A stretch of DNA of 62,765 nucleotides, filler included, from Dugesia japonica (lineage: Eukaryota): the NCBI GenBank assembly GCA_001938525.1. It is 7 parts of 7 records of this genome, joined end to end, with 100 filler letters (N's around TTAATTAATTAA, not from the genome) between each part and the next. Parts side by side here need not be neighbours in the genome. Positions count along the whole stretch, not along the records: positions 1 to 8,847 come from MQRL01631706.1; 6 more parts are not named here. One strand, written 5' to 3'. Shown here in pieces: positions 1 to 45,671 of this stretch. Under the pieces are notes generated by a model. That model worked only from the letters and a program-made list of their open reading frames with translations. It was not told the origin of the DNA and made no database searches. The translations under genes and the position numbers were made by a program. Position 1 is the first letter of the stretch; every line of letters starts with the position of its first letter.

Positions 1-499
1 ATTTTTATAAGATTACTTGCACAACAACTATCGGTAACTTAAAACCGTTTGACTTTACAATTTCTTGTTTATCCTTAAAAGCTCAAGTTAATTATTGTAT
101 TATTCTCCTTATATTAACATAACCAAGACAATGACTACTTTGCAACGAGTGTGTGCAGTAAATGAAGAAATTACGAGTTAAAAAGTTGAAATATCCATTA
201 TCTCCTTAGTCAATCATCGTAGTTACACTATCATTATTGTCATTATGTGCATTATGAATGAGCTACTTGAATATGTTCATCATGCTGTTATTTCAATCTA
301 GCGGAATGATCGAATAAAGCTAGCGAGAGAAAACTTTTATTTCTAAAAATATGTTCTGAATTGGAGTGAAAACAAATTAATGGAATACGGGAATAAATTT
401 CTTCTCGTTAGTAAACAAAAAATGACATTATAATTTATCAAATTTATTATAATATAATTATACAAACATAAAAATTACAACATTAAAACCACATCCTTA

Positions 500-1349
500 C
501 TTCTTTTTTCGATAGATTCTGCAACGGGTTTCAAACAATTTCTCTTGATTCCTTTTCTAGCTTTATTTTCACAAAATTAATCCCGATCTTTACTAATGGC
601 TTTTCACAAAAATATTAAACGCTTTCTTCTAAAATTCTGTGGGTTTATATAGCGTTTTTATTTGCACCACCACTCTGCTCCTTTTGGTCAACTTCTTCTT
701 ATTGGCTCCATGCTTGATTTTCAGACTTTTTCTGCTTCTTTTCTGATATTTTATTGGGGCCGATTTATGGGTACCACATGATTTTCATGACATTGTTTTT
801 TTCATGGCTTCTTATTGGTCCAATCTTCTTGAATCTTTCTTGACCCTCCCAAAGATGTTGTCATTTTTCTTGTCAAAATTGGATTTCTCTTGCTATAAGC
901 TTTTTGATTCTTTTTATTCCGTAGTTTTTTGACCATTCTCCAAAAAGTTATTCACCTTTTTTCGATTTTCATATCAATGATTTTTTTAATTGTACTAGGT
1001 AATTAATTTTTTCCTTTATTATTTCCCAATTTTATTTTTCTTGATATTTAATTAATTCAATTATAATTTATAATATTTTCTTGATTATAGATTGTTCTTC
1101 TTACTATCTTCAATTATTTCATTGTTATTTTCCATATTTCTTCTAACTTCTTTTCTCATATTCTTAATAAATTTTTTGTAGTCATTTTCTTTCTTATTTC
1201 GAATTAGATTTATTGTTAACTTATTGATTGCTCAGTTTTTGAGGGCCTCCGTTGAATTATTTCTTCCTTTCTATCGTTTGATTGATTCCTTTTCTCGACT
1301 TGGGCCCCTGTTCCTTTTATCTTCGTTAATCGGGTGTTTAACCCCAACA
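500..1349 (-). mobile_element. LTR-like promoter segment (TGTTGGGG start, multiple CCAAT boxes, TATA box)
   Basis: The minus strand starts TGTTGGGGTTAAACACCCG at 1349 and is purine-rich, with several CCAAT boxes, CATGTGGT and CTATATAAA near 650. The same start and motif order occur at 14568-15300 (+). The distal end is not defined. Confidence 0.5.
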
Positions 1350-1820
1350 TTATTTTAATCACTTTCTATTGGTTGAAATTATTAATTATTAATTCTTTCC
1401 TTATAGTATGATATATGTGTATCTATTATTCCAAGTTTTCTGAATGGTGAGCAATACCTTAAAACATAAAATATAAATTTAATTAATTGAAAATTAAAAA
1501 GTTGCAAGTTTAAAGAAAAAATTAAAATAAGACAATAAAATGGGGAAATTACCATAATTTAAGAATTTAATCAACAAATTGCAGCCTAAATTATATACAA
1601 GCAAAATTGTATGTAGGCGTTTAAGATGACGCTCTAATTATAATAGTCTGATAATCCGTTGACAACGCTTTAGACTATTGGGGAAAGTTATTATTGGCAC
1701 TAAATATGATGACATTAATCTATTATATTTTACTTAAAGTAATTTAGTGAATATAAACGCAAGAATCATCTGAAAAATTTAGTCGAAAAGAAAATTATTT
1801 ATTAAAGAAATGAACAAAGT

Positions 1821-3590
1821 TCACGGCCGTGATGCCTGGACTCCCTTATCCACCATAAGGAGTGTGAGTGGCATCGCCTTACGTAATTTTAAAATATCAC
1901 CAACCAGTTTATTCTCTCGGTCTTGGTAGGACCGGATGATGTCCGTGAGGGATTCTAACTAAATCTTCCAAACCCTTTCTTGGTGGTGGGATGCCTCAGC
2001 ATCATTCTTAAATTCCAAACATTTCTTCTTATAACGTTTAACTTTGGCCTCCGCAGTCGCAGTGTCGGCTTCCCAACGCCGCATTGCGAGCCTATAAAGG
2101 TCCCAAGTGATTTCTGTATCGTCACTGGATTCACGCAGCTTCTTGGTAGGCGCTACAGGACGATTTAAAGAAGAATTCACTAAAAATTAAATAACGCTAT
2201 TACACGATTATTCAAAAGTAAAAACATGATAGAACTTAACATTTAACACTTAATTAACTTATGAAGATATTAAAAACAGTGGAATAATTGTAGAAGTACC
2301 GAGGAAACATACATTTATTATGAAACATTAAAAAAAGAAATTTCAGAGATAATCCGACTCGAGTTCAGTCTGTGTCAACATTAATAACATTATCGGAGGT
2401 TCCTCCCGCGGTCTGGTTTCGTAGTTTCCATAACGTATTATCTAGATCAACATCTATTCGAGTATTGGATGGCGAATGCGTTGCTGATACAGGAAAGAGT
2501 GCCGGACCTTCTCGCCATACACTGGTTGTTTGGTTGGTTATTGGTCCTATAACTGTGGTGCGGTGGAGCACCTCTTGTGTGCGGTCGGGTCCGCGCCAGT
2601 CGAAAAATGCTTAGCGTTCCGCTGCCGCTCACTCTCTTTCGTTTTCCGCGTCTAAGGAAGGCATGTTAGAATATTCTGTGAGAATCCTTGCATTACGATC
2701 ATGGGGGTTCCAGTACCTTTTAAAAACGACTTTATTGGTCCGGCGATATTATAGGGTTTCCCATACAAATTTCATTTTACAAGTAAATAAACCAAAAATT
2801 TGTTTAAGTTATCATTTTTTTACGGTAAAACAATTAAGAAAAATAACACAAGTAAACAAATATAATCATTCAATTTTAAATCTTGTTTTAAACAGGTAAT
2901 AATGGTTGAATGTTTTTACCCATACCTAATGGAAGACATTTTTTGCATCGACATCTACTGAAGTTACCGAGGGGAACATCTCCGCGAAAAAAGCTAAATC
3001 TGTTTAGTCGGGATGTTCTATTTTACCTCGCGAGAGAAGGTGTGCCAACAACTAAATTTTTACTCAATCATTAACCGCATTTGTGTGTTCATTTACTAAA
3101 TTTCTACTCGGTGGTTGTGCATTCCATTATAGTGAGTCAGTAGTGAAATGAACTTTTGTTTTACGTGGTAAAACTCCTGACACATCTACTGGTGAGAAGG
3201 TGAATATTAACTTATTATTGCCCATATGGAGAACTGATTTGCTTGAATTAGTTATTGAGCTAAATAAGCAGGGGAAAAGCGATTGAGAATAAAGGTGTGT
3301 TTTTTCAATCGAGTTTAACAATAGATGGCAGTTAGTATGTGCTAACCCATTTTCTAAGACTATCTGATCAATCATATTTCCATTGATAAAAGTTTCCATT
3401 ACGATTGCCGACGTGTGAGTGTATAGTGGACTTTTGCGATGACGATACGCGAGTTAATATTTACTATCAGGACACGGGTTATATATTTTCTGGCTGCATA
3501 CAACAGCTAACTTTGGGTGAAATCGTTTTTCTGACCAGATCATGATTGTCTAATGATTTAAATGGAAAAGGAATTTCTGTTCAGGTTTAG
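1821..3590 (-). pseudogene. Copy 1 of dispersed three-ORF module of unknown function (ORF A ~3590-2925, ORF B 2775-2365, ORF C 2179-1821), with in-frame stops
   Basis: Manual translation aligns to 15947-17255. A: LLAHL..HPD*TDLAFFAEMFP..VDVD vs LIGHL..HPNELDLHCIVEFFP..VDLD. B: WETL*YRRT..KRYWNPHDRNA..FFDWRGPDRTQEV vs WEILLDRRT..KRYKNPYNRNA..YLDWSGPNRAQEV. C: TWDLYRLAMRRWEADTATA vs TWDLYRLTKRCWEADTATA. Confidence 0.75.
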
Positions 3591-4149
3591 CTCTAAAATT
3601 AAGCAGATGTTAGCATATATATACAGAATCGATTAACTTTAAATTGAATAACTTTATTAACATTTTACTACAAAAATCACATAAAAAATTTAAAAAACGA
3701 AATAATATTAATTATATATAATATTAATAATATTAATTAAATATATTAATCAGTTGTCCTAATACTAATTTTAAAGAAATTTTAAAAATTTTTAGTTCAG
3801 AAAAAAATTAATTTTATAATATTGTGTAAAATTAATTCATTTTTGAATGAATTTTAATAAAGAAATTTATAAACATAATATTTATAACATAAATTATATG
3901 TATAAAAAACACAAAACAAAATTTAAAAATTTTCAAAAAAAATACAAAAAAATTAAAATTAAAAAATTCTAAGTATAATATATTTATAATATCTAGAAGA
4001 CTTTTCTGTTTTAATCCAAAAAAAGTTTTTTGAAAATTTTTTGAGTTGATTTAAAAATAAAATCATTAAATTTAAAAAAAATAAACCAATAAAATTTTGA
4101 TAAAATTTAAAGAATTTAGTAACAAAGATCTATTGTATTAAGTATCTCA

Positions 4150-4305
4150 AGAAGCCAATATTTTCCTGAAGAAGACTATTGTCGAAAATTTGAACTTTTT
4201 TACAAATAAATTTTATTTTGATCGAAGCTTTACTTTATTTTAATGAAATCTCAAATGCGATCAATGGTTAAGTCCACTAATTATTCTCACAATAATTGTA
4301 ATTAT
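4150..4305 (+). mobile_element. Penelope-like pseudo-LTR fragment with minimal hammerhead motif (4163-4194)
   Basis: TTC-CTGAAGA-A-GAC tatt GTC-GAAA-AT-TT-GAA, followed by the TTTTGATCGAAGCTTT...ATTATTCTCACAATAATTG tail shared with 11500, 24521, 24900, 28463 and 29705. Confidence 0.6.
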
Positions 4306-4333
4306 AAAATGTATTTATCTTTAAAAATGAATA

Positions 4334-5446
4334 ATGATAATAATTTTCAATGATTTACGAAAAATAACAGCTGACATTAAAATTATTAAAACCAATAAAA
4401 TCATTTCATTCATGTTGAATCGATTAATTTTCAGATTAATGAAATTAAGGAAAACATTAAAATACTTGATGATTTTGGTTTTTTTATTAATAATGTGGCT
4501 TCTTATTTATAGAGCAGAAGTTTATCGTTTAAGTTTTATTAATGATATGATTTCGAATAAAAATAATTGCCAAATCGAAACGGTAGATGATTTAATAAAA
4601 TTTGGTAAAAAAAATCAATTTCCAAATGGAATACCAAGAATTATTCATTATGTTTATAAAGATCATAAGTTGCCAATTCAATATGCTCAATATGCCAATT
4701 ATTGTATGAAAATTAATAATGATATGAAATTTGTTTTTTGGACCGATAAATTAGCAGCGAAAATGGTTTTCAAATATTTTCCAAAATATATTTCTGTTTA
4801 TAAAACCTATTTAAAAAAATCTGTTGAATCATTGAAACTTTCTGATATTAATCGATATTTTATTCTTTCAAAATTTGGTGGTATTTATATGGATCTCGAT
4901 ACGAGATGTCAAAAACCATTCCACACTGTAATGTATGATCATTCTTGTTTTTTAAGTACAGAAGTTCATGCTCAAAGTCAGATTTTATGGAATTATGACT
5001 ATTTAGCTATGAACAGTTTGATGGGATGTATACCAGGTCATAGATTTTTCAATTTCATTTTGATGAAAATTGAAAAACATAAAAAACTAAATATACTTGA
5101 ACAAACTGGCCCAATTTGGATTACAAATATGTTTAAATTGTACTTGACAAATTCAAACTATTCTAAAGATTTTTTTAGTTTCGTTGTTCTAGCAAATTCA
5201 TATTTGTTTTCTCCTATAATAGATAAACATTTAGAAATACGATGCGTAAAACCATATGGTGCAGGGAGAGTTAAAGGGTGTAAGGGCCTCATAAAATATC
5301 GACGAATAGAACGTGAAAAAATTCGTCAGGCAGTGACAGTACATTTGTTTATGCATTTAGGCTATGAAGATAGAAGATATTTAATTAAAAGAACTTTAAA
5401 TATTTGCTTGAAATTTAAAGATTTTCACTTAATAATATCTAAATAG
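4334..5446 (+). CDS. Glycosyltransferase family 32 (DXD sugar-binding domain, SUR1/CSH1/OCH1-like), type II membrane protein, intronless
   Basis: Intact 370-aa ORF with an N-terminal TM segment (YLMILVFLLIMWLLIY) and the motifs IPRIIHY, FVFWTD, SDINRYFILSKFGGIYMDLD, NSLMGCIPGHRFF and TGP. The true start may be a later Met. Confidence 0.88.
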   Translation: MIIIFNDLRKITADIKIIKTNKIISFMLNRLIFRLMKLRKTLKYLMILVFLLIMWLLIYRAEVYRLSFINDMISNKNNCQIETVDDLIKFGKKNQFPNGIPRIIHYVYKDHKLPIQYAQYANYCMKINNDMKFVFWTDKLAAKMVFKYFPKYISVYKTYLKKSVESLKLSDINRYFILSKFGGIYMDLDTRCQKPFHTVMYDHSCFLSTEVHAQSQILWNYDYLAMNSLMGCIPGHRFFNFILMKIEKHKKLNILEQTGPIWITNMFKLYLTNSNYSKDFFSFVVLANSYLFSPIIDKHLEIRCVKPYGAGRVKGCKGLIKYRRIEREKIRQAVTVHLFMHLGYEDRRYLIKRTLNICLKFKDFHLIISK

Positions 5447-5597
5447 TAATTTGTTTTTTATTAATGAAAATCAGTCTTTGTCTGGGCATAAATTATGATT
5501 TCTATTTAATAGAAATGTGAATTTCGTAATATAATTTTTAAAATAATAAGATCAATATTGTCATAAAAAAAGTTTTACTGTTTAATAGGTTTTTAAT

Positions 5598-6599
5598 AAA
5601 AAGTTATTTAAGAGAGGACAGTGACTACTATCCAATTCAACCCACTCAGAGTATGTAGTCTTGTCAAGACCTGGAGAAGATTTGTTTGGCGCATTCATTT
5701 ACTTAATAAATTGTTTAAACCGTATAAGACTGATGTAAATCGAAAGGTTATTTAGGTGGAGTACAGCATGGACACCTGGAATAATATTCAGGGTAAAAGA
5801 TAATAGCAGTGGGACGTTGCTTGAAATGTTGGATTATATTACTATCACTTATCAAACTTTAAGTAAGTTTTTATGTATATAAATCTATTTTATTTATATT
5901 ATAGGCAGCTAACCAGAATACAGATTAGTAATATAATGCAATTTTTCACTTATTAAATTTTCAACAGTATAATTGATAAGATATAAAATAAAAATTTGTG
6001 TGTGTGTCATCAATCTGATTATTACATAAGTCATAAAATGAAACATTTAAAACTCTTTGAAATTAATTTTTGCAGTTGTAAACAATAAATAATCTATCAA
6101 TGTTAAAACTTACTGTTATTATTATTATACACACTGAAAACCTTTGATTATAATAAGTTGATAACAAGTTAAAAGCATCGAAAAATAATAGAGCGCATAG
6201 TTAAAGCATGCAGGCGGGCGAAGAAGTACCTCGCACCGGTACTGTGAATTTAAATATTTGTTGACAACATGTCTACTTCATGTACCCTTGACTTCATGAT
6301 TGCTCGATTTTTTGTAATTGCATTAATTCGCAAGAGGCGCATGCGAATACTTTTGATAAATTTCAAGCATGAATTCATTATTTTCCTTGGTCGTCAACAA
6401 CATTTCAAGCCACGTTTCACTGCTATTATCTTTCACCCTGAATATTATTCCAGGTGTCTTTGCTGTACTCAACCTAAATAGCTTTTCGATTTACATCAGT
6501 CTTCTTCGGTTTAAACAAATCTTCTCAAAGTCTTGACAAACTATATACTCTGAGTGGGTGGAATTGGATAGTAATCACTGCTCTCTTAAATAACTTTTT
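5598..6599. repeat. Long imperfect inverted repeat (arms 5598-5831 and 6398-6599)
   Basis: The left arm AAAAAGTTATTTAAGAGAG...GCTTGAAATGTTG is the reverse complement of the right arm, apart from substitutions and a ~30-nt indel. Confidence 0.85.
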
Positions 6600-6639
6600 A
6601 ACAAAGTTCTTAAGTAAAAAGATGTACATAACCAATGGA

Positions 6640-7717: not shown

Positions 7718-8847
7718 TGTTAGGGTTGAGTAAATTTGCATTCCAATAAAATATGAAATTAATTGAAACCTGTGAAATAAAAGAATAATGATAATAATTT
7801 ATGCTAAATAATGCAAATATATATTATAAATGTAATTTCAAGTATGTGTATGCATGTGTATATTTGAGTAAAATCTTGAACGTTGGAATTGAGCAAATCT
7901 AAATAAATAAAGTATTAATTAATTAATTAAAATATTATATCATTAATAAGCGGAAGGATGAAAGAAAAAAGAATATAATTAAAAGAAAGATGGGGAATAA
8001 CAAAAATTCAAGAGTTTAATTATACAGTGACAGCTGAAATTAAAACAAGATAAAAACGTGGGAGGTCGGAATAAACATCAAAGTTTTGCTACAGAAGAGG
8101 CGAAAAGATGATAATTGAAAGTTGTCAGAAACTTGACAAGGAAGCNNNNNNNNNNNNNNNNNNNNNNNNNNNNNNNNNNNNNNNNNNNNNNNNNNATTTG
8201 AGTAATGTCTTGAACGTTGGAATTGAGCAAATCTAAATAAATAAAGTATTAATTAATTAATTAAAATATAATATTATTAATGAGCGGAAGGATGAAAGAA
8301 AAAAGAATATAATAAAAAGAGAGATGGGGAGTAACAAAAATTCAAGAGTTTATTTAGAAAGTGACAGCTGAAATTAAAACAAGATAAAAACATTGGAGGT
8401 TGGAATAAACATCAAAATTTTGCTACAGAAGAGGCAAAAAGAAGATAATTGAAAGTTGTCAAAAAACTTGACAAGGAAGCGAAGTCAGAGTCATGGGACC
8501 AGAATGAGACTATATAAGCAAATAGATAAAAGTAAAAAAAAGGAGGAGAACTCGAGAACTTAGTAGAATTTAAAGAATTGTAAAAATTATTAAGAGGGAA
8601 GTCAAAGATAAATTAAAGTAGCCAAGGAGACAAAGTTTATTAAAATAATTTAAAGAATTAAAGGAAATCAAAGGTTTGAAAAAAGAATAAAAGATATTTT
8701 GGAAATAAAAAACGAATTAAAGAAATCAAAGGGATCAAATTGGAATTGTCGAAATAGTAGAAGCTAGAGTTCAATTTAATCATTACTCATCAAATCAAGC
8801 CCATTGACTCAACTCAGACTAATCAATTATCTAACCATCGTATTTGT
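7718..8847 (+). mobile_element. LTR-like segment (TGTTAGGG start, TATA box at ~8510) containing a ~285-bp direct duplication across a gap (7862-8145 / 8196-8480)
   Basis: Purine-rich strand bias and CTATATAAG. Near-identical copies flank the N gap, which may be an assembly or haplotype artefact. Confidence 0.45.
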
Positions 8848-8947: not shown

Positions 8948-9959
8948 TGTATACATATTGAAATTTGTAAGAAATTAATGGGACTTTTAAAGGACTTGAT
9001 AATATTAGTATGATTTATTGTACTTAATCCATATTTTATTTGTATAATTCTTTAGTCTATGATATATTGAATCTAGTGTATTACTGCTTGAGTTAAGTGA
9101 TTTGTTAGGAATTAATGAAAACTAGTATGTTTTAATGAAAATCAGTCNNNNNNNNNNNNNNNNNNNNNNNNNNNNNNNNNNNNNNNNNNNNNNNNNNNNN
9201 NNNNNNNNNNNNNNNNNNNNNNNNNNNNNNNNNNNNNNNNNNNNNNNNNNNNNNNNNNNNNNNNNNNNNNNNNNNNNNNNNNNNNNNNNNNNNNNNNNNN
9301 NNNNNNNNNNNNNNNNNNNNNNNNNNNNNNNNNNNNNNNNNNNNNNNNNNNNNNNTGTATGAAATACAACCTTATAAAACTCATGAAACCATAGAAAACT
9401 CTAAAAAGCTATGGAATACTTTGAAAACCTTTGAGTATCCAAAAGCAAAAGAATACTCAAAAAAGAATACTTGATTATCCTAAAACCAATGAGTATAGAA
9501 AAAGATATAAAATACTCAAAAAACCATTTAAAATTGCACAATTTATAGTCAAAAGATGAAAACATACAACTTTATATTGATTTTATTAACAATGAAACTA
9601 ATTATTTGGTATTTAAAGAAAAGAAGGAACACAGAAAGCAGCTGAGCAAACAGGTGAGCAGACGAGAAAAAGGAGGGAGAAAGCAAAACAGTGGACAGAT
9701 GATGAAGGATGTATATTTTCTGGAAAAGGATACATTGTAATTCTTAATTATGCAACACATAAGCTAAATAAACCTATTGAATAATCATTTGTCATGAAAT
9801 ATGTTATTTTATCATAAGTATTTCTCGAAAAAATAATTTTTCATCCTCAGTGAGACATGGCACTTGGGAATTTTCTATCTTTTGAACTAAAAGTATTTTT
9901 ACAACAAACCCTACACAAAAACTCGATGCCAGTGCGCTCATTTCTATCTACTAGTAAGC

Positions 9960-11211
9960 ACTATGTCGCCTCTGATGAAAAAACCAGAATTAATTTATAT
10001 AGATATTAACAATCATTATGGTTGGGTATTAAGTCAGAAATTGCCTTATGCTGATTTTTAGTGGGTCTATACAGGTTTAGAAGACATTTTTGATGAATGT
10101 AGATCAGCAGATCTAGTCTCACTACCATATGGATTCACATTGGAATTAAACATGGTTATTCCGACCTAGATACATATAAATTGAACAATTTATCTGCAGC
10201 AGCAGAACATCAAAGTCTACCAGAGTTAAAAGTAAAGATATTATTACTGACTCATTACCCGAAAATGAATTATGTAATTCACGGGAAGCTGCTGCAAATA
10301 TACATACAATTAGGAGTACAGATAACTAAGATTTATAGAGCAGTTAAATTCAAGCAAGCTGCAATTTTTGAAGATTATATTAGAAGGAATATAATATTTA
10401 GATCACAATGTACAACTGAATTGGAGGAAAATTATTATAAGTAACTAAATAATAGTCTGTGCAGAAAGTTTGTAGAGAATTTGAAGAAAAGAATAAATTT
10501 GTTTTTGTGCAATTCAAAGAAAAAGTTGATGACATCTACGTCAAAAGCAAGTTTTAGAAAAACAATCAAAATCATTCAAGACCTCATAGCTGTTCTTTTC
10601 AATTAGGATATTGTATGTTTGGATCAATCAAACTACATTGAAAAGACTATACTGGACCTCTTAAAACTTCGTATGTATCTATTAAAATACATTGAGTTGG
10701 AAAAGTACAGGTGAAAGAAAATCTTACAATAAATATTGTAGCCGCCAATATGGATAGTATTTTACTAGAGATTTCTAATATAAGTTTGGAAAAACTAACC
10801 AGTTTAATATTGAGAGATCAGTTATTAAATACATCCAATTATAGCACAAGCCATCTCTTTTACTCGAACAATTTAAACAGTGTCATCGGAAAATTCAAGG
10901 ATGGGAGTAAAGTGAAGAAATATAGTGAGTGAATATTTTTGAGGCCGAAATGTTATAGCTTACTTAGCGATAAGGAATCGATGAAAGCTAAGGGTATAAC
11001 ACTAAAAAATAGCGGAATCAAACATCAGTCTTATCTTGACTGTTACAATAATTATAAAGCGGTCTCTGCAGATCACTTACAAATATCCAGTAAGAATCAT
11101 CGCCTCTACCGCACAAAAAGCAAAAAGCTAGCCTTATCTAATATGGATGATAAGATAAAGTGGATAAAAAAGAATATAAGTTTACCGAATGGACATTACA
11201 CATTAAGTTAA
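9960..11211 (+). pseudogene. Polinton/Maverick-type protein-primed DNA polymerase B relic (C-terminal half)
   Basis: Motif A YIDINNHYGWVLSQKLPY (cf. YLDANNLYGWAMSQxLP), motif B LNNSLCRKFVENLKKRIN, degenerate motif C (NMDS), VIGKFKD, LRPKCYS..KAKGI and KLALSNMDDK. Multiple stops and frameshifts. Confidence 0.85.
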
Positions 11212-11499
11212 AATAAAATATGTAGTACTTTTTCTCAATAATGATCTCATCAAACAGAAGTTTGTCTCAAGTTGGCAAGTATTTATTTTTATGTTGTAAA
11301 TATTATTTAAGATTATTCTTTAGTATATATAAATTCTTGCTGATCCCGCAACTGCCGCCACATATCAAAGTGATCCGTACAGGTAAACATTTTTTTAAAT
11401 ATTACTTAAAATCTTTTTTATTTAAAAATACATTAGAATTTACTTGTCTGCTCTGACTCATTCTGCTCCTACATTAGAATTTATTTATCTGCTAATCAA

Positions 11500-11600
11500 A
11501 TTTTATTTTGATCGAAGCTTTTTCTTATTTTAATGAAATCTCAAATGCGATCAATGGTTAAGTCCAACAATTACTCTCACAATAATTGTAATTATTAAAC
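11500..11600 (+). repeat. Penelope-like terminal repeat fragment (no ribozyme core)
   Basis: Near-identical to 4208-4305. Confidence 0.7.
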
Positions 11601-13284
11601 TAAATTAAACTAAATTTATAAAATATCATTTAAAAACATTTAAACATAAAATTTATTTTTTAGTCATACGATATTCTGTGATTCGTGGAATATTTTATAT
11701 GGCAAAATAATTCTAAATATTTAAATTTAATATTGATTAACAAAAATAAATGTATGACCACAAGTTTTTGCTTTTCTTTCAATCTGACATTTGTGTTGTT
11801 TTCTAAACGCTAATGATAGAGATTGTAATTATATATGAAGCCTGATTTCGTTTATTTGCTCTGGACTTTTATATTCTAAGTCAATATTTAAACCATTTGC
11901 TACTTTTATTGTATCCTCTTCATAAAGCTGGTTTGCTATAGTTGGCGGATTAAGATTAAACAATTTTAGCAAATTAAGCATTAGAAAATTTGTTTTTTAA
12001 TGAATCTATATTGAAATCTCATTTTTTGATGCTTGTTTTTCTTCTTAATTATACGAAACTATCCAAAAATTAAATTTTCATCAAGGCGTGTAAGCCAGCT
12101 TCTAGTATATTCTCCAACTGATGTCGATAGAGTAATACCTCATTATTTGAAATCTCTTGAAAAGCATACATGAATATATAGACATTGTAAAAATTTTTCA
12201 GAGTTTCTGCTTTGTTAGTTTTACAATCGCTTAAGAAATCTATATAATTCAATCTTAGGTCTTTATCCTCAGTATTTGGATTTAATGATGTAAAATTTTT
12301 GGAATTTTGAATTGAACCATTTCTTTCTTGTATTCCTTTTTAATCTCTTTATTTTTGCCAACACAAATATCTATATTTTTCATCATTTTTTCCTGTTTCA
12401 AAGATAACGTATATATTTTGGTCATATTTTAAAAATAATGATTTATTTCGAAAATCATGAACTTATATACATGAAGATATGTAATAAAAATAAATTAATC
12501 GGATTGGCTAAAAATGGAAATAAGTTTGATTGGAGGTTTAAATCTATATATTCAAAATACAAATTAACTAAAATCATTTATTTTCAAAATGTGATATAAA
12601 TTTATTGGAAAATTATCAGTTATTGAAGACGATCATCGAAATGGAGAAGTTGAGCCAAATTTAGAATATGACGAAAAAGAATAGCCGACAACTGTATACG
12701 AGGAGGCAAAATATTTTGAAGCTACGAGAGCGTTATTTTTTACTAATTTAATATTTAAAAAATTATTGATTTAGAAATTATTGAATCTGATGTACAAATG
12801 ATGGAAAAAGCAGATTTGTCTAGAAAAATCGTCAAATACATTTGATAAAGGTTTGACTTAATTTCGTTTTAATTATTTTGTTTTAGATTTGTTCATAGAC
12901 TTACTTGGACTTTTTAATCCATGCCTTGGAGATGATATTCTTTATTGTGCACCAGAATTGATTTGGTTAAAGAAATGACCGGAGTGGACATAAAAAAGGT
13001 CATGAATATATACAATAAATATCATAAAGAAGATATTGATTGTGACAATTTTTCGGGAAAGAAAAAAGATTTGAAGAGAAAAAATATTGATAATATCCAG
13101 AGTCTAATAAAAGAAAATGTTAATAAATTTATGTAAATTAATTCATGTTATTAAATAAATGTTAATTTATAAAGTGTTTATCTTTATTATTATTGTACTT
13201 AATACTTTTTATTAAATACTTTTAAAAAAATGTAAAAAAATTAAAAATAAAATTTTTAAAAAAAAAATTCTTCATCCTTAAAAA

Positions 13285-13459
13285 CGATGAGTTACCCTGA
13301 TCTATGAAAACGATGCGCCATTGTCTTTTTTCCAGCCATTGGTGAGTCATACCAATGAGTCATTGTCTTTCTTCTAGTCATTGATGAGTCATATTTATGA
13401 CTAATTGACTTTGTTCTGAATGTTCTGGGTGATCCAGTGAGCTACTATCTACCTACTTT
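13285..13459. mobile_element. MULE-like TIR end with subterminal TGAGTCA repeats
   Basis: Ends CCAGTGAGCTACTATCTACCTACT, similar to the motifs at 7586, 9931 and 18003. Repeated (A)TGAGTCAT units lie inside. Confidence 0.5.
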
Positions 13460-14567
13460 CGCGCTCAAATAATTAAGCAAGTCAGTGCTATTTAAAGTGA
13501 ACGGTAGTATTTTCCTAACTTTATCTACCAACTTATAGGAATTAACCATAGAACTGGCAAAACGCGACCCGATCTTATATATGAATCCATTTATCATTCA
13601 CAATAAAACCGCAGGACCAGAAGTATTTTAGAAATTCAAGGTAAAATAATTCAAGTTTGTATGAAAATAATAAGCTAACCAACTGATGTTTCTAATTTAG
13701 CGTTTTGCAATCATTATTAACTTTTGACTAGCACCGTCGTTAAAGTTGTACGACAACCGAATAAATAATTTCTAGTAGTTTATTGTGGTGGTAAACATGT
13801 CGAACTAGTAATATAACGGTTTTCATTTTGAATTTGTTAGATTTATTTTACATAATTTTGATTTTAATATTTATATTTTATTTCAATTTCGTTTTATTAC
13901 TTTTTTGAGTATTTTCGAAATATTTTAAATAACTTTGTAAAGGAAATTAACCTTGAAAAAATAATTTTCAAAATTTAATTAAATAACAATGAAAAATTAA
14001 AAAAATAATAGTTCAATTATTTTGTTAAATCGATTTTTATTTATATTGAAGAAAAAAACAATTATGGGAAATGTAATTATCTAGTTTCCAAATAATATTC
14101 CCTATTGTATTATTCTATCGGAAAATGATTTATGTATTAAATCGAAAAAAATAAGAAAATAACTAAAAGCTGGCTTTAATTAATTAAAATCCAATGTTTT
14201 ATTTATTCCAAAAGATTTTGAGAGAATAATTTAACAAATAATTAAATACACACAATTTTAGATAAAACATGAAACCGAATTACTTTAAAATATAAATTTA
14301 TTGTGAAATTTTCTTTCAAATAATCTTAACAATTTTTTTATATATTCATTAATTGTCAGATATTGTATTATATTGTAATGTGATGTATTATATTATTTGA
14401 AATTGCTTTATATTGTAATGCATTATATTGTATTGTGTTGTATTGTATTGTATAATGTTCTAACATTAAATTATAGTATAAGTTTTATGATATAGTGAAC
14501 GGTTGCTCATAAAGTGCTAGTATTTTCAAATTAGTAGTTATAAAAATAAAAATAATTATAATAAAAA

Positions 14568-15300
14568 TGTTGGGCTGAAACACACGGTGTTAAAAGAAAA
14601 TAAAGGCCAGGGACCCAAATCAGAAAATAATAGCGAAGTAGGTTGTGAAGAAAACTAGTAAGAACTAATTATCATCTAATGGGAATTATAACCATTTTGT
14701 CAATAAAAACCTGANGAGAATGCAACAGATAATAAGAAGATACCAGCTGAATGAAATAAGGGTTCAAATCAACCACATAATCAAAAGAAAATAAGTAATT
14801 ATAATAAAAAAGCAGAAAATTATTATTAAAACTAATATTTAATTACTGAGGAAAAATTAACTAATTTTAGTGGAAAAAGAATAAAAATTAGACAAAAATC
14901 TGTTTTTCAAAGATATCTCAGCTTAGAAAAATNATAGAGACTTTTAGCAAGAAAAACTGGAAGGAAAAGGTAACTGGGCAAGAATNTTTTAACAAGAAAA
15001 CTTTGCCACTATCAGAAGGCTCATAAAAATGGTTTGAAGATTCAACCAATAGCAGTTCAAAAAAAGAAACATAAAACGAAGAAAGAAAAACCACGTGGTG
15101 TTCCAAACATATGCACCAATAGTGTAGCGGAAAATTGTCAAAAGTTTTAGAATTACAGACAAAACACCAATGAAAAACGAGAAACTAAAAACAAAAATAG
15201 AAGCCCAATACAAAGAAAGTTGGGGTGCAAGGAAAAGGNTATAAAAGCTTCAAAATATTTTATTGAAAAAACAATATTTTACAATAGTTTTAAAGTATTA
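14568..15300 (+). mobile_element. LTR-like promoter segment homologous to 500-1349
   Basis: Starts TGTTGGGCTGAAACAC; several CCAAT boxes, CACGTGGT, and TATAAAAG at ~15240. Confidence 0.5.
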
Positions 15301-15946
15301 GAGAATTCATTATTAGCTATTGGTCATTAATTGGAGAACTAATATAATACGTATTAATTTCCAAGAAAAAAATCAGTTTTCATCAGTAAAAAAAAAATTC
15401 CAGTTTTCATTACTATGAATAATATTATGATGAAATAAGATAGAATGGTCTTTGTCTTTTTGCTATTATGATAAGAAGTTTTGTTTGGGAACTTAAAAAA
15501 AATTTTTTAATTACTGTGTGGTGGTTACTTTCCATTGTTATTATAATAATTGCAATTGTCAAGACAAGGTCACAACATTGTCTTTTATCACGTCATTAGG
15601 GCTATTACATTGAGTATTATTGTTTATTTTTTATGGTGGTTAATTCCCGTAGTAATACCCTTATTGACATTCCTATTGACATTATGAATCTTATTATTGC
15701 TATAGAGATCATCATGGTATTAGGTTAACTCAATTATCATTTTGGTTATCTTTATCATTATGATATCATTATTATGGTTACTATTATCTATAACAAATGT
15801 ATCAATTTTCGTTATTACAAATTTTCTGTAACTTTGCCAATAACCTTACTAGTACCATTAGTTTTTCCATCATTAGAGTTATTTTACTCAAACAGGTACT
15901 CTAAAGTTATACATTTATTATCAATACAATTGGGACGTTAAAGAAA

Positions 15947-17255
15947 TTGTTATTTTGGATTCTCAGTTCACAAATTACGATGTTCAACATTCTATCAAAA
16001 ACCCTAAGACAGATTCATAAGAAGAGACATAATGCTCGTAGGAAACAACTGATAGGTCATTTACCCTTCCCTGATATTATCCTCCATCCCAACGAATTGG
16101 ATCTTCATTGTATTGTAGAGTTCTTTCCTTTCCCATGGGAAGTAGATTTAGATAATAAGGTGGAATAACTCCTTGTCGCATGAATTTGATTTGTTTTATG
16201 TTGCTGATAAAATAATTATTAACTCTATTTTTAAACATTTAATGACTTATTGGTTTTTTTCATTGAAGTAAATCTGTTAACATTATCGTTACTCAATATT
16301 TATTTTAGTGGAATACAAGTGGGAGATTCTTTTAGACCGTAGAACCGGTAGGACTATATCTAAAAGGTATAAAAATCCCTATAACCGAAATGCAGGGGTT
16401 CTGGTGGACAGATCGAACCTGATTACCATAGAAGTGGAAGAAGAGAGGCACTGTGACGCTACTAAGCGCCAGGTCTATTTAGATTGGTCCGGTCCCAATC
16501 GAGCTCAAGAAGTGTCACATACTGCCATAGCTTTTCTACCCATCCATAATGAAGATTTCCATACNGTAAGTGAATGNAGAGAGGGTCCATCGGTCGTGAG
16601 CATGACAACTGAGCATCTTCTTTCTTATTCCAATTTAAGTGCCTTCATTCAGAACAATCTATGGAACGTAAGGAATGCCGAAGATGGTGGCAGTTCCGAA
16701 AACTCTACCACTACCACCAATAACGTTATAAGGTAGTAATTAACTATGCGACTTTTAAATAATAATAAAAGTATTCTTGCTGTAAGTGATGTCTTTAGGT
16801 ATCTGTTTTAATTTATCTTTTTATCCACAATCATTAAGATGGATAGTAATAATTGGAGTATTAGGTCATTATTTGATCTTTGCCTTTCTGTAATTATTGA
16901 TGTCTTTTTCGTTTTCAGTGCATTCATCGCTAAATCGATTGCCTGCTTCCACCAAACAAGAAACGAGCGATGACACCAAAATGACATGGGATCTATATCG
17001 TCTCACCAAACGTTGTTGGGAGGCGGATACGGCAACGGCCAAAGGTAAGGTAAAACGCTATAAAGCTAAATGTATAGCATTCCGGAAAGAGGCCGAGGCA
17101 TCCCATGTCCAGGAACGGTTATGGACAAGTCAAATCAAATCGTTCGTAGAAATTATCCGGTCCCTCCATGACCGATATTCTTACATTAAGGAAGGCCATG
17201 CTTCTCGAACCATTTAATGGTTGATAAGGGCACACAAACCTCACGTCCATACCTT
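15947..17255 (+). pseudogene. Copy 2 of dispersed three-ORF module (ORF A 15947-16168, ORF B 16309-16736, ORF C 16919-~17255)
   Basis: Protein-level homology to 1821-3590. ORFs B and C begin at AG|TG acceptors. ORF C carries a deletion and frameshifts before MVDKGTQTSRP. Confidence 0.75.
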
Positions 17256-17285
17256 TTTTGTTCATTTAATATTGTAAATAAAAAT

Positions 17286-24263: not shown

Positions 24264-24520
24264 CTGAAAATAATGGAAAATTTCAATTATAAATATTGAA
24301 TATTAGTTAATTATTTTTCTTAAAATTAAAAAAATTTAATGCTTAATTTACATTAATACACGTAAATAACAAGAATATATAACAAAATTAACTTAAATGA
24401 AAAATTTTTTTTGGTTAATCAAATTTCGTGAATTATTCGAATTTATTTATAGTATTATTTGAAATTATTTTTAAATATTTCGTAATAATTTAGAACAATT
24501 TCTCAATAAAGTTTTTATAC

Positions 24521-24997
24521 AATTGCAATTATTGCGAGAATAATGGTTGGGCATAACCATTGATCGTTTTGTAGAATTCATTTAATATAAAAGCTTTGAT
24601 CAAAATTTTGGTTTTTTATTGATATTGCATAACAAATGAATATTTCGACCTTGTCTTCGTCAGAAATTGACTTTTTTTCAAAATGGACAACAATGGATAT
24701 GGACAACATTTTCGATGATAAATTAAAATTTCTTAAAGCAAAGATTAAATGTATTCAATTATCTTTTGTTTTGTGATGACATACAATAAATAATACATTC
24801 TGCTTGAAAAAAAACGTTCAGTTTGAAAAAAAGTTTAGATTAGTTTTTCGGCAACCAGTGGTCCCCAAGAAAATTTAAGTGGTATTCTTTTTTTTAATAA
24901 AAAAAAGTCAATTCCTGACGAAGACAAGGTCGAAATATCGAATTGTTATCCAATATCAATAAAAAACCAAAATTTTGATCAAAGCTTTTATATTAAA
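24521..24997. mobile_element. Inverted pair of Penelope-like pseudo-LTR fragments (24521-24680 minus; 24900-24997 plus)
   Basis: The two arms are reverse complements, and each carries CTGACGAAGACAAGGTCGAAATAT. Confidence 0.7.
24909..24945 (+). ncRNA. Minimal type I hammerhead ribozyme (Penelope-associated, dimer type)
   Basis: CAATTC-CTGACGA-A-GAC aag GTC-GAAA-TA-TC-GAATTG: perfect 6-bp stem I, 3-bp stem II, palindromic AUAU stem III. Predicted cleavage after C24939. Confidence 0.72.
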
Positions 24998-27590: not shown

Positions 27591-30499
27591 TTTATTGACT
27601 TAGCTGATATAAGATATTATTTTGGCAACATTTTCAAAAAAGAAGTTTTAAAAAAATGAATGAAATTATCTAAATCATATTTTCTTAAAAGCTTTGAAAA
27701 ATCAAACGTTTGAAACATCAAAGAAAATTAATCAGTTTATTTGTTTTACTTTTTACGATAATACTTTTGAGTAAATTTTAATTCAATATCACAATAGAAT
27801 TATTTGATCTTTAATTAATATTTCTAAATCGATTTATTTATTTTCTCATTTTATATTAAATTAATATTAGAAAATCTAACTCTAATAATTTATTGGCGTA
27901 ATGCTCACACTTACTTAATACTGTAATCTTAATACGTTAATGCTTAATGGAAATTATTTCCATTCACATGTACTACAAGCCAAAACTTATTTGAATAAAT
28001 ATAATTATTTTAGACTAATGAAATTAATTAAAAATCAATTACAAAAAACAATTTGTTTTAATAATAGTCAAAACTTTTTTAATAAATAAAGCAAATGGTA
28101 AATAATATTTGAACTGATAGTGTTTTGATTTTATTAAGTTAATTAATTAAATTGATTTTCTAATCCNNNNNNNNNNNNNNNNNNNNNNNNNNNNNNNNNN
28201 NNNNNNNNNNNNNNNNNNNNNNNNNNNNNNNNNNNNNNNNNNNNNNNNNNNNNNNNNNNNNNNNNNNNNNNNNNNNNNNNNNNNNNNNNNNNNNNNNNNN
28301 NNNNNNNNNNNNNNNNNNNNNNNNNNNNNNNNNNNNNNNNNNNNNNNNNNNNNNNNNNNNNNNNNNNNNNNNNNNNNNNNGAACCAGTCAAAATGACTGT
28401 TTTTAATATTTTTCTCGAAAATTTCTATTATATTCCATTTTGAATATAACTTTAGTAAGTGAAGTCAATTCCTGTCGAAGGCTAAGTAGAATATTCAAAT
28501 TATTATCAAAAACAAAATTAATTTTGATCGGAGCTTATATTTTAATGTATTTCAAATTTATGCTGATAATATTTACAGCTCAAAGAAGATTCGTATCTAG
28601 ATTTCTTCATATATCAGATAATTCATTTATATAATCATATAAAAATTTATTTAGGTTAATTTTTAAATTCTCAAACTTTCTTTCCATATTTAATACTACA
28701 ATTAAAATTTCACGAAATAAATATTATCCTCTTATTACTCCAACTTTTTTGTCAAGTTGAAATTATCGTATTTTAGAGATATTTTAACTTTTTTGACTTA
28801 ATTTATCTTTCTTTATTTCATTCTTATGTTATCGACATGTTCGATCTCTTATTAATTAATATTACAGTATGTATTGCGTAGAAGAACCTTCATCGTCATC
28901 GTTGAGATAAATGTTATTTAATTTTCACTAGGAGAACTAAAACATTTAAAATGTAATATTTTATCATTAGATATTATTGTTTTCTCTTCAAAATTTACAA
29001 AGTATTTCAGCATTAATATTTTGTTTTAACAGTAGCAAACAATATTATTCATTTTATATTGGTAGATTAAATTTTCGGCGTTTGAAAATAGTGAGTTTTT
29101 AATTTAAAATAATTTTCTGAATTTTGACACGGACTTTCAAAGGTCTAGCTTTGATTAAATGTGTAAGAACATTTCTTTTTAGTTTGCTACGAAGTACTCC
29201 ATTGTTATAACATCATCCTATCATTTAAGCCAGCTGCGGTAGCTTACATCTTAAGATTGTGATTGAAGGTACAAAATCTGGTAATAAGTGAACCAATNCG
29301 TAGAGTGGGTTGAGTGATTTTTATATATATTGTGAATGGCTATTTTTTAGAGTATTCTGATAGGTCATACATACTAATTTTCTTATTCTTCTCCTTTTAC
29401 AGCTATTAGCTGTACTCCGTGTACCTCTTTTACCGCTTTTGGTTTCTGAGGTAGTTGGCTCCGGCCAACTATTACAAATGCAATAAATGTTACATTTGTA
29501 ATGAAAGGCTTTCTTTTGGAAATTCTTTTTTCTGAACTACCTCATAATATTAAATAATAATAATAAATAATATAAAATTTAATTGAATTTTTTAAGAGTT
29601 TTTGACTGTCTAATTTGCATATATTTACGTATTCATTTAAAATAAAAGATTCGATCTTTTGGAATTATTATTATTTTCAAATTATTTTGAATTATTATCA
29701 TAAACCAAAAGCTTTTATTTTAAATGAATTCTGAAAAACGATCAAAGATTATGTCCAACAATTATTCTCGCAATAATTGCAATTCTAAAATATTTATGTA
29801 TCCTAATTTATTAATCACTACAGACAAAAAAACAGATCGAATTGAATATTTCAAAGAATACCAAATAAAGTGATTAACTTGAGAAAGAGTTAGTAAAGTA
29901 TAGTAAAATAATCAAAATAAATATGATTTGTTATTAAAAATCGCTACTACATATAAATTTCTTATTATTTGCAAATAATATATGAGTAGATATTTTCATA
30001 AGTGTATATTGATTTATTGATTATTTGAATTTTGATTTATTTATCGATATTTAATAACAATAAAAACCGTAATAATTAAAAAAACAAAATCTTTTAAACG
30101 AATAAGAAAATAAATATTGCATGAATCAAACGTCTTANNNNNNNNNNNNNNNNNNNNNNNNNNNNNNNNNNNNNNNNNNNNNNNNNNNNNNNNNNNNTAC
30201 AATAATTAATTATTCTGTCGAGATAAGTGATAAAAAAAAACTAAATGATGTAGACATTGAAAACTACAAATCTCTTAAATTATTAATATCATAAATATTC
30301 ATGTAAAATAGAATTTGTTTTCATTGTTTATTATTTCCATTATAAAGAGAATTGAGAATACTTTTTTCTAATATTTATCAATAAATTTAATCAAACATCT
30401 TTATTGGAAAATAAAATGTCTACGAAAATTTANNNNNNNNNNNNNNNNNNNNNNNNNNNNNNNNNNNNNNNNNNNNNNNNNNNNNNNNNNNNNNNNNNN

Positions 30500-33400
30500 A
30501 AATTCAAATGTAACACGCTTAGTCAAGATTTATTATAATATTAAAACAAGTGACTTATTAATTATTAACTTTCCCTTTATTTAAGAAACTGTCCACTTCT
30601 TTAACCATTCTATTCTTCGTTGTTTTAATCCATCTTTACATATGAGTTCCACTTGATGTGGAGAAATATATCTAATTATCTGAAATGGTCCTTCATATTG
30701 AAAATCATTTTTCTTTCTCTTATGGGGTTCTACTCGTACCAAAACCCACTCTCCCTCCTTAAAACTCCGAGATCCTTGTTTTTAGTTTTCGAAAACTTTT
30801 TCTAAATTTATTCTAGCTTCATCAATTATTTCTGTTTTACCGGTTTCTGAATTGTTATATTTAGAATGAATATTTATTTTCCGGCCAAAAACCATTTCAA
30901 AAGAAGAAAATTTAGTCGAATTCTGTTGACTTGCATTAATGCTGAATTAAATTCTTTGCAGTAATTTTAACAGAGTCTTTTCTTCGCATTTATTTTTTAT
31001 TGAGGTTGTCATCATATCTCGTACAGTTCGTATCACTCGTTCTACCAAACCATTTGATTAGTGTTGATAAGGTGAGGTGAACTATTGTATTATATTCAGT
31101 TTTGACATCTTTTTTTTATAAAATTACTTTCAAAATTTATTTCTCTGTCTGTCAAAATATTGATTGGCTTTCCGTAACGATATATAAAAAATTATTCAAA
31201 ATAACTTTGAATACAAATTGATCATCCAATTTAGATATTACTGTTAAANNNNNNNNNNNNNNNNNNNNNNNNNNNNNNNNNNNNNNNNNNNNNNNNNNNN
31301 NNNNNNNNNNNNNNNNNNNNNNNNNNNNNNNNNNNNNNNNNNNNNNNNNNNNNNNNNNNNNNNNNGGAATCAGTGTTTCTAGTACGACTTTGAGTAATTT
31401 GCCTTTTAGCACAAACTATACATTGTTTTAAATACGCTTGTATTGTATTCATCATTGATGGCCAAAAATAATGATCCTTAAGATAATTAAAAATCTTTTT
31501 TTCACCAAGATGACATAGATCGTTGTGAATCATTATTACAAATTCATTAGCAAAATTTATTGGTACCAAAATTAATAAATTTTTACCGTCTTTTTTAACA
31601 AGTAAATCATCAATAATTTTCAAGTTTTCAATACTTTTAAACAGGTATCTAGTTTTACAGATTTCTGAGCATTCCATAATTTTACTAATTAAGTACCTTT
31701 TAATTTCGCTAAAATTTATGTCGTTGTTCTGACTAATTTTAATATTGTCCACAAAATTCAATGTTTGGTCCAGACCATTTATGNNNNNNNNNNNNNNNNN
31801 NNNNNNNNNNNNNNNNNNNNNNNNNNNNNNNNNNNNNNNNNNNNNNNNNNNNNNNNNNNNNNNNNNNNNNNNNNNNNNNNNNNNTTTTCTATATTGAAGA
31901 TCCAAATCATACTCTGAAAGATTGGCCATCCAAGTTTGAAATTGAGGACTTATTGGTTCTTTTGTTGTGTTCATAAAAATTAGAGCTTTGTGATCAGTTC
32001 TAGCGATAAATTGTTTGCCATATAAGTATTGCTTGAAATACATAACATATTCATGTAACGCTAACAATTCTTTTCTAGTAACACAATAACCTTTTTCATG
32101 AGCCGAAAGAAGTCGTGATTCATATGCAATTACTGTTTCATCACTATTTTCTTTAATTTGGCTTAATACAGCTTCTATTGTTCCAAAACTAGCATCTGTG
32201 TTTAAAATAAACATTCGATTTTTTCTAGGATAATCCAAAATAGCCGCTGAACATAATTTATTTTTCAGGGCATTAAAACTTTGATCGCATTCATTTGTCC
32301 AATAAATATTTTTGTCACATCCTGATATGGCCGCATAAAGTGATGCTGCAATTTCAGCATAATTCTTTATAAATCGGTGATAATAATTTGCTAACCCGAG
32401 AAATTATTTTAATTTTGATGAGCATTTTGGATTTTCTGCTTTAAGTATTTCTGTAACTTTCAAGGTATTTGTTCGAATTTCATCGGAATTAATAGTGTGA
32501 CCTAAAAAAATGAGTTCTTTTTGATGAAATTTGCACTTTTCTGGGTAGATTTTTAATCCGCAATTAAAAATCCATATAAACACTTCCTCTAACATTTTGT
32601 CATGTTCTTACTTAGATTTTCCATATACTAATATATCATCGAGATAAAAAATAATACCATTAAAAATTAATCTATCTAGGAGTTCATGCATAAGTTTTTG
32701 AAAAGTGGCTGGTGAAGTTGCCAAGCCAAAAGGGATACGATTAAAACAAAACTGACATCGTTTAGTACTGAAAGCAGTAAACAGTCTTGAATTTTCATCC
32801 AACTCTACTTGGCAGTAAGCTTGGCCCAGATCGATAGATGAGAAATAATATGAATCAGCTAAACAATCAAGCAGAAAATGTATATCCAGAATTGGAAAAG
32901 TAAATTGTTCTGTAGCTGCATTTAACTGTCTATAATTAATACACATTCGGATTAATCCGTCTTTTTACTAACAATTACTGGTGGGGAATTCCATGGGCTT
33001 TTACATTTTTTTACCACATCTGTTTTGATAAAGTTTTCCACTAGTTCATCAATTTTTGATTCTAAGCGCATTGGTTGACGTCTAGGTTGTTTCAGTATTG
33101 GTGCATTATTTGCTTTTATTTCATGTTTTATCAATGTCGTATGACCCAGATCGAATTTCGAAGCCATAAAAATATGCCCATACATTTTTATCAGATTGGT
33201 CAATGTATTGTTGTTTTGTTTATTGAAACATTCTAAGGCAATTCTGATTCTTTCTGTATCTGAATGATTATTTTTGATTATAGAAATATTAATATTGTTT
33301 ATTTTCACTAGTTTTATTCCAAAACTTTTCATTATATCTATTTCACCAATGAAATTTGGATAAATTGGTCAAACTATTAATATATTTACTAATCGAATCT

Positions 33401-44609: not shown

Positions 44610-45671
44610 GACATGTTGTGTAAAAGGCCATGTTGCATTGAGCGAAAAATTTGGTAACCTCTAGGTGCGATGTCTGGTGAGTATGGTAGTGAGGTTAAAC
44701 TTCCCATTCGAATTCTGCTATCGAATTTCTCACTAAATTCGAAGTGTGGGATCGATAATTATCATGCTGTAACAACACCGTCTTATGTCTATTCGAAAAA
44801 TCTGACAGTTTTTCATGCAATGCTTGAATCAACTGTATTAACTCTTGTTGATAACGCCGTCCATCGTTTCACGTTTGTTCAAAAGCTCAAAATAAATAAT
44901 CCCCCTTTGATCCAAAAAATGGATAACATTACCTTATTTCCATGTAAGTCTCGTTTTAGTGTTGTTTTTTGGTTGGCCAAGCTTTACCCAGGATTTTCTT
45001 AGTTTCGGATTTTCTTAAGAAATCTATTTTCAAGACAAGTAACAATGCGATCTAAAAAGGACTTATTCCTTTGACTGCTGAGCAGCGTCTGACAAATGTC
45101 TAGTCGTTTTGCGATATCTGCTTCTTTCAATTGATGAGGCAACCATTTACTGACTTTTTGTTTGTATCCTATAGCTTTTAATCGTCTGCTTATGGAAGAT
45201 TTATTTGTATAATTGATTTCTGACATTGTTTCAGTTGTTTCGGATTGATATTTGATCAATACCTTTTCCAAATCTTTATCTGTAAAGGGCTTTAGTTTAC
45301 CTGGACGTTGTTTATCCTTCATATCAAAGTCACTCAGTTTGAATGGCCGAAACCATTCTCGACAGCATGTTTTAGACAGAGCATGGTTGCCATAAGCGTC
45401 TGAAAGCATCCCATGACTTTCTGCAGCACTTCTTTTCATTTGAAAACTAAAAAGCAATGCCTCTCGCAAATGTGCGTTTTTTGGAATAAAACTAGTCATA
45501 TTAAATGGATCGGTTTTCGTTTGCTGTGCAACTTAACTAAATAATATATCACTATTTTAACATTTAAATATTGATACTTAACAAATCTTACCGATTGATT
45601 TAAGTTTTCGCTACAATATGTAATAAGTTAGTTTATTAAAACAAACAGCAAGAATTAATGCAACTACCTAA
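44610..45671 (-). mobile_element. Mariner (Mos1-like) element, degenerate transposase with left TIR
   Basis: HTH HLREALLFSF..SAAES..AYGNHALSK..CREWF, KWLPHQL, FLDRIVT and PYSPDIAP (~44670). TIR TA-TTAGGTAGTTGCATTAATTC at 45671. Confidence 0.9.

Follow-up and report, generated by a model that had tools for sequence, protein, structure and literature searches.

Accessory open reading frames (ORFs) are common in LTR retroelements and are mostly unexplained. Among the closest described systems, Burro/GYPSM1 of Schmidtea mediterranea is a complex LTR element carrying accessory ORFs in an AT-rich genome, and its extra domains (MATH, BIR, BCL2, ankyrin, SUMO-like, and Env) are described either as parts of a 4,873-aa polyprotein or as located upstream of it (PMC6431247). 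The env gene of Drosophila gypsy is expressed from a spliced subgenomic RNA in which the junction forms the start codon (PMC2585583), the env start codon of springer-subclade errantiviruses is likewise reported to arise from a splice junction (bioRxiv 2023.08.03.551782), and conservation of the acceptor has been noted in errantiviruses (PMC13669377). In Cer1 of C. elegans, the Gypsy accessory gene CERV is lineage-specific, located 3' of pol, spliced, and, according to its description, free of outside homology; it encodes one 517-aa protein from five exons, has exons in common with gag, and is needed for RNA export (PMC10309623). The MDG1-group elements possess several short selected accessory ORFs (sORF1 and sORF2) with a poly(A) site between them, which are described as located upstream of gag on an unspliced RNA, sORF2 being membrane fusogen-like (bioRxiv 2025.03.14.642691). 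Foamy viruses, for which we draw partly on PMC3694450, combine a donor close behind the LTR start site with 3' accessory genes, and the env-bearing Gypsy elements of flatworms are described with the gag-env-pol order (PMC13524379). In the open literature we met no account of three genes forming an alternatively spliced cassette within an LTR element of flatworm-like type, and such a cassette may be annotated in Repbase/Dfam.

The locus analysed here contains a cassette of three genes, A, B, and C, beside an LTR-like promoter segment, and on our reading its mode of action would resemble that of spliced subgenomic genes in complex retroelements. It recalls Burro as a set of accessory ORFs of a putative complex LTR element in an AT-rich genome; a direct link to Burro, which the original prediction had considered, was not upheld, as in Pfam A, B, and C match none of the Burro domains, compared by domain description. 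The start codon formed at a junction, as we propose for the cassette, would be common to it and to the env genes of gypsy and the errantiviruses, but in the latter the codon is split as AT|G and one membrane glycoprotein is produced, whereas the cassette has a predicted A|TG junction, several soluble proteins, and separate poly(A) signals. The membrane-spanning segment typical of errantivirus env and FAST-like sORF2 was found in none of the six cassette ORFs (maximum 19-residue Kyte-Doolittle mean 1.23), which points to soluble proteins. With CERV the cassette would have in common the lineage specificity, the 3' position, the splicing, and the lack of outside homology, but not the single five-exon protein with exons in common with gag; with the MDG1 group, the several short selected ORFs and the intervening poly(A) site, but not the place upstream of gag, the unspliced RNA, or a fusogen-like membrane protein. 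The predicted donor close behind the LTR start site and the 3' accessory genes would be foamy-like features, although foamy viruses are retroviruses of vertebrates that possess gag, pol, and env as well as an internal promoter, none of which is seen in the cassette.

The window, that is, the whole stretch of DNA that was analysed (62,765 nt, ~27% G+C), consists of seven scaffolds with N44-TTAATTAATTAA-N44 spacers between them, and its contents (a mariner remnant, RT/RNase H remnants, and host-like genes) indicate an AT-rich animal draft assembly. For comparison, the S. mediterranea genome is reported as >70% A/T, and its first assembly as highly fragmented (PMC11410931); a planarian origin of the window is plausible. 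The cassette occurs here in two copies, at 1821-3593 on the minus strand (copy 1) and at 15896-17282 on the plus strand (copy 2).

Table 1. Coordinates of the cassette genes, the associated signals, and the neighbouring features
Feature	Position	Strand	Remarks
Gene A, copy 1	2926..3593	-	~205 codons, five internal stops, no frameshift
Gene B, copy 1	2365..2775	-	Own ATG; 136 codons with three internal stops
Gene C, copy 1	1821..2180	-	119 codons, one internal stop; T-rich TAG|TG acceptor-like start (G at 2180)
AATAAA after the B stop, copy 1	2314..2319	-	Sequence
AATAAA directly after the C stop, copy 1	1798..1803	-	Sequence
Promoter/LTR-like segment, copy 1	500..1349	-	3' of the cassette; TGTTGGG at 1349
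Promoter/LTR-like segment, copy 2	14568..15385	+	5' of the cassette; begins TGTTGGG
Predicted intron, leader to A, copy 2	15386..15895	+	Low-complexity; without a match in copy 1
Gene A, copy 2	15896..16168	+	3' part only; 37 residues align to copy 1
Gene B, copy 2	16309..16736	+	142 codons, stop-free; T-rich TAG|TG start (G at 16308); AATAAA at 16764
Gene C, copy 2	16919..17282	+	T-rich CAG|TG start (G at 16918); 99 codons open, frameshift near 17180; AATAAA at 17277; scaffold end at 17285
DXD glycosyltransferase ORF	4331-5446	+	Intact, single-exon, 371 codons; PF04488, E 5.5e-14
Fragment of another repeat, between C and TGTTGGG in copy 1	1374..1606	.	~two-thirds identical to 7812-8054 + 8220-8388
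Broken frames, candidate PolB	9900-11211	+	Copy 2 scaffold; labelled by motifs

The homology of copies 1 and 2 and the common order of blocks A, B, and C, both proposed earlier, were confirmed by tblastx. Between the copies, the protein score reached 266 for B and 282 for C, against maxima of 51 and 53, respectively, in 60 shuffles; for A it was 60 against a maximum of 57, and this short match (p ~0.001, 2000 shuffles) lies at the expected distance from B. The module DNA of the two copies aligns with z = 20.6. Identity at the three codon positions is 0.62/0.73/0.40 (247 aligned codons), and the synonymous sites are saturated or nearly so (pS 0.72-0.79). The pN/pS ratio equals 0.26 for C (87 codons; 95% bootstrap 0.17-0.37), 0.46 for B (124 codons; bootstrap 0.35-0.60), and 0.58 for A (36 codons; bootstrap 0.36-0.89), in an alignment guided by the protein sequences, a procedure biased towards low pN, especially in the short A block; for B and C the effect is large. 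Since pN/pS values of 0.26-0.58 accompany saturated synonymous sites, the blocks were genes under purifying selection, as had been expected from their divergence. A, B, and C are thus real, selected, undescribed genes represented by two copies. They are no longer intact ORFs: copy 1 has internal stops in every gene, and copy 2 has an open B, an A reduced to its 3' part, and a C with a late frameshift. Parts of copy 2 were present in 7 of the 24 listed sequencing runs (best share 0.28, three studies), and no RNA run holding copy 2 was among the matches listed; neither observation is evidence either way.

The original prediction included a third copy (52.0-52.8 kb) and placed the three sites on three different scaffolds. 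The latter agrees with the scaffold boundaries; the third copy itself proved no better than chance in protein, DNA, profile, and control-window tests. None of the six protein queries exceeded the shuffle maximum (0/6), its DNA gave z values of 0.3 and 0.0, profile searches with A, B, and C and with DNA missed it, it failed the control-window ranking, and its TGTTGGG segment (51709) is unlike those of copies 1 and 2 (z -1.2 and -1.0). Because this candidate failed every test, the finding comprises two copies, and the argument for a high copy number has two copies, not three, as its base; similarly, an undescribed selected three-gene module beside an LTR-like promoter is retained for copies 1 and 2 and withdrawn for copy 3. 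The rejected region has only a loose layout in common with copies 1 and 2, and 52000-53350 possibly represents a different element of similar layout. On its minus strand this stretch has two broken blocks that are richer in G+C, and on its plus strand (52800-53350) a broken, Asn-rich frame whose tail is GC-rich; neither Pfam (the two blocks, six frames) nor PHROGs gave a match.

A segment beginning with TGTTGGG and carrying CCAAT and TATA boxes had been noticed beside each putative copy; it is homologous in copies 1 and 2 (z = 7.0), and only the claim for copy 3 falls away. In copy 1 the CCAAT boxes are located at 882, 818, 757, and 705, the TATA box at 651-649, and a donor-like A|GTAAG at 500; in copy 2 the CCAAT boxes occupy 15046-15205, the TATA box 15240, and a donor-like A|GTAAA 15386. 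Homology of the copy 1 segment to copy 2 extends over 1349-630 and was not shown for 640-490. In a ranking with 976 control windows, the initial 120 nt come first, as does the CCAAT part, the TATA part fourth, and the AT-rich middle 10-68, while the 150 nt after the TATA box, comprising the predicted leader and donor, rank 142, i.e. without detectable homology between the copies. The 100 nt before TGTTGGG rank 151 of 976, and a weak shuffle signal of homology upstream of TGTTGGG in copy 2 (z 3.3) was lost against real control windows and rejected. The drop from rank 1 to rank 151 means that the similarity begins sharply at TG, as at the end of an element. In both copies the segment has the orientation of the genes, following C in copy 1 and preceding A in copy 2, and these 3' and 5' positions fit two partial views of one LTR-bounded element.

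The structural hallmarks of an LTR element are fragmentary in both copies. The TG-starting segment stands on one side of each copy, so neither has both of the direct terminal repeats, and the profile search, which covered the window from 5500 onward, did not reveal the segment a second time. Neither gag, pol, nor integrase was recognised beside either copy (stretches read; Pfam of the module ORFs), and the RT/RNase H remnants of the window are located on other scaffolds with no promoter segment nearby. The 3' CA end of the LTR was not located; the bases before TGTTGGG in copy 1, which is decayed, are A-rich rather than G-rich and thus give no polypurine tract; copy 2 has no clear CA-TGG junction for a primer-binding site, and no tRNA genes for primer comparison are present in 5500-62765. 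A target-site duplication was found at neither copy, copy 2 stopping at the scaffold end. As gag, pol, the primer site, the polypurine tract, the LTR 3' end, and the target-site duplication were not found, we infer the LTR identity from the segment and its position; as gag-pol and the polypurine tract were not found, the cassette is not assignable to Gypsy or Burro. A hammerhead ribozyme, the trait of Penelope-like elements and retrozymes, gave no Rfam match at E <= 0.1 in 1-3700 and 9356-17285. Since both copies are fragments, gag-pol may have been lost from them.

We estimate the chances as about even that an LTR retroelement carried the cassette as its 3' accessory region and expressed it by splicing. 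If a non-autonomous version is counted in, a spliced accessory cassette of an LTR retroelement becomes the probable explanation. This version, taken alone, seems unlikely to us: a ~4-kb element (LTR-A-B-C-LTR) that never requires gag-pol in cis, maintains its three genes by selection, is mobilised by another element, and uses the same leader splicing. It would account for the ~510 nt between the promoter segment and A in copy 2, where no gag or pol remnant was recognised, for the missing pol upstream of copy 1, and for the strong selection on B and C. At the same time, A of copy 2 is devoid of the front part present in copy 1, which looks like the end of a deletion, the primer site was not found, and copy 1 has no 5' promoter copy, its predicted place being occupied by the intact glycosyltransferase ORF. 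This ORF starts ~740 nt upstream of gene A on the opposite strand, so that copy 1 is cut at the 5' side whatever the model.

The cassette might instead be a block of genes, alternatively spliced and equipped with a promoter of its own, that belongs to an integrated DNA virus-like element of the Polinton/Maverick type or another kind. This origin must also be weighed, since the copy 2 scaffold carries broken frames whose motifs we take to be those of a Polinton/Maverick-type family B DNA polymerase (PolB). Polinton-like elements usually carry small orphan genes with separate poly(A) signals. The presence of Polintons in planarians is also documented (PMC8532177). We consider this origin improbable: the PolB label was confirmed by none of Pfam, PHROGs, PDB, and viral contigs, the candidate, which alone among the Polinton hallmarks (pPolB, integrase, ATPase, capsid, terminal inverted repeats) was noticed near the block, lies 3.4 kb from copy 2 behind a small repeat, copy 1 has no PolB-like neighbour, A, B, and C have no match in viral contigs, and the promoter homology starts abruptly at TG.

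The splice-acceptor, leader-donor, and poly(A) anatomy of the cassette is new here and was missed by the original prediction. T-rich YAG|TG acceptor-like sites mark the beginning of B in copy 2 and of C in each of the two copies. The window has 34 such sites on both strands (0.28 per kb per strand; 16 under a stricter cut), and three of the 34 fall exactly at the starts of B in copy 2 (B2) and of C in copies 1 and 2 (C1 and C2). The conservation of C begins at this site, ~28-34 codons before any in-frame ATG, and the downstream in-frame ATG is not common to the two copies. In front of A in copy 1 (A1) an acceptor-like TTTTAG stands at 3593, preceded by a branch-like GCTAAC, and the first ATG after this acceptor (3543) is in frame; B of copy 1 has its own ATG, but no intact AG acceptor precedes it. 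In each copy an AATAAA is present behind B and behind C, and in neither is there one behind A. A donor-like A|GTAA occurs 149-151 nt (copy 1) and 146 nt (copy 2) past the TATA box with no ATG before it; this match, against a background of 0.95 A|GTAA per kb, was chosen after looking and rests on the distance from TATA. As the leader/donor region is unalignable and the choice was made post hoc, the donor match is suggestive only. Joining this donor to the acceptors would give an A|TG junction; by computation, the resulting AUG is in register with the conserved frame, which remains open over 142 codons in B2 and over 99 in C2. Judged by motif positions alone, the motifs and the frame fit a leader splice forming the start codon at three of the five acceptor-like sites.

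Since the order of the blocks is conserved, the AT-rich spacers have the size of introns, and the acceptor-like sites are in the same phase, A, B, and C might also be successive exons of one ~450-480-residue protein. This is hardly credible: the ends of A and B have no common donor in the needed phase, B ends with a stop and AATAAA in both copies, and no larger protein that includes C or A+B turned up, the last point being weak evidence.

Poly(A) signals followed by acceptors are also the layout of an operon, and a host gene cluster or operon-like unit could be imagined, in which a promoter is followed by three cistrons resolved by polyadenylation and spliced-leader trans-splicing, the whole being tandemly repeated. 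The spacers between B and its neighbours (139-181 nt) are inside the 300-nt flatworm operon criterion as given in PMC12582326, and the copy 1 promoter could open the next unit beyond the scaffold end. We regard such a unit as quite unlikely, because C has no common downstream ATG, both copies are broken and dispersed, the profile search found no C remnant upstream of the copy 2 promoter, and the protein collections searched hold no annotated relative. Furthermore, the flatworm spliced leader ends in AUG, and translation from it would be in the wrong frame at B2, C1, C2, and A1 (4/4 tested), meeting a stop within 0-8 codons.

We therefore return to the spliced LTR element. Copies 1 and 2 would be its damaged, distantly related representatives, with the TGTTGGG-CCAAT-TATA segment as the likely LTR. 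Copy 1 may be seen as the cassette with the 3' LTR, its 5' part being lost, and copy 2 as a 5' LTR fused to the cassette by an internal deletion, which would also have removed the front of A. A transcript starting in the 5' LTR would open with a non-coding leader of ~120 nt ending at A|GTAA, which may be spliced alternatively to the acceptors before A, B, or C, so that the internal part of the element is jumped. In B2, C1, and C2 the A|TG junction would itself make the AUG, and the B and C transcripts would end at their own AATAAA. A more far-reaching proposal, to which we give rather low credence, is an invertebrate LTR element with a splicing programme akin to that of complex retroviruses, in which one non-coding leader ending in A serves several AG|TG acceptors, each choosing a gene and writing its start codon, with own poly(A) sites and families found nowhere else, and in which the cassette may persist without gag-pol, retained solely for its three genes.

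The proteins themselves have no family, structure, or named relative: sequence searches of Pfam, PHROGs, and PDB gave sub-threshold hits only, and the earlier remark that the module ORFs have no gag, pol, env, or transposase motif holds in Pfam. A search with A+B of copy 1 against 1.84 billion representatives returned one protein, P0005 (E 6.8e-9), which comes from a 512-nt assembled contig, is identical to the front of B2 at 36 of 78 positions, and is called from the same first codon as B. The word-based protein searches yielded no relative among two candidates for B, five for C, and 733 for C against longer proteins; as the word search with B missed P0005, these blanks are weak. Candidates from viral contigs were equally negative for B (0/160), C (0/38), P0005 (0/19), and A (0/8), as were those for B in prokaryote genomes (0/80). 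Of 101 candidates for C in metagenomes one matched, over 24 residues within a GC-rich gene of bacterial origin; this is a chance similarity and was rejected. The ESM Atlas contained nothing at 0.9 or more for C and nothing usable for B.

AlphaFold2 models C as one helix (residues 20-95, pLDDT 67), while the model of B is unreliable (pLDDT 40), and its Foldseek search, with no match at E 0.001, is uninformative given this pLDDT. C is also basic (20 K+R vs 12 D+E in copy 2), and together with the modelled long helix this suggests an oligomerising nucleic-acid-binding regulator. It is a tentative guess, on balance doubtful, that C oligomerises and binds nucleic acid, regulating the transcription of the element or its RNA export; the latter function is proposed solely by analogy with CERV.

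Three orphan genes kept across a saturated synonymous distance and switched by splicing would, if true, mean a retrovirus-like complexity in an invertebrate element. The lack of a start codon in the DNA of C and of copy 2 B would explain why gene callers and protein databases missed them, and the predicted junctions are exact and checkable against existing RNA data.

Several other features surround the cassette copies. The repeat piece between C and TGTTGGG in copy 1 is probably an unrelated insertion; the same repeat recurs at 7812-8847, where it runs into a broken K/E-rich frame (+) and is duplicated across the gap 8146-8195 (93% over 285 nt), perhaps through assembly overlap. An inverted repeat pair (5597-5831 and 6398-6600; ~235 nt, 80% alike) is 566 nt apart. 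On the strand opposite to copy 2, in the interval from the promoter to A, broken Asn/Asp-rich frames occur at 15450-15890 (-), which resemble 52800-53230 solely by low complexity. The decayed retrotransposon at 31231-33368 (-) has a pol remnant with RT and RNase H confirmed, and 56077-59074 (-) is, judging by its motifs, presumably another pol remnant of a decayed retrotransposon; the profile search showed the TGTTGGG segment to be absent from both. A Mos1-like mariner transposase remnant (HTH_48, Transposase_1) is located at 44658-45532 (-), and a ChaC-like gene fragment (PF04752, E 6.1e-16) at 46900-47339 (+). A MITE-like short dispersed repeat of ~100 nt, 79-93% identical, occurs at 4208-4318, 11498-11599, 24506-24606, and 29689-29797.
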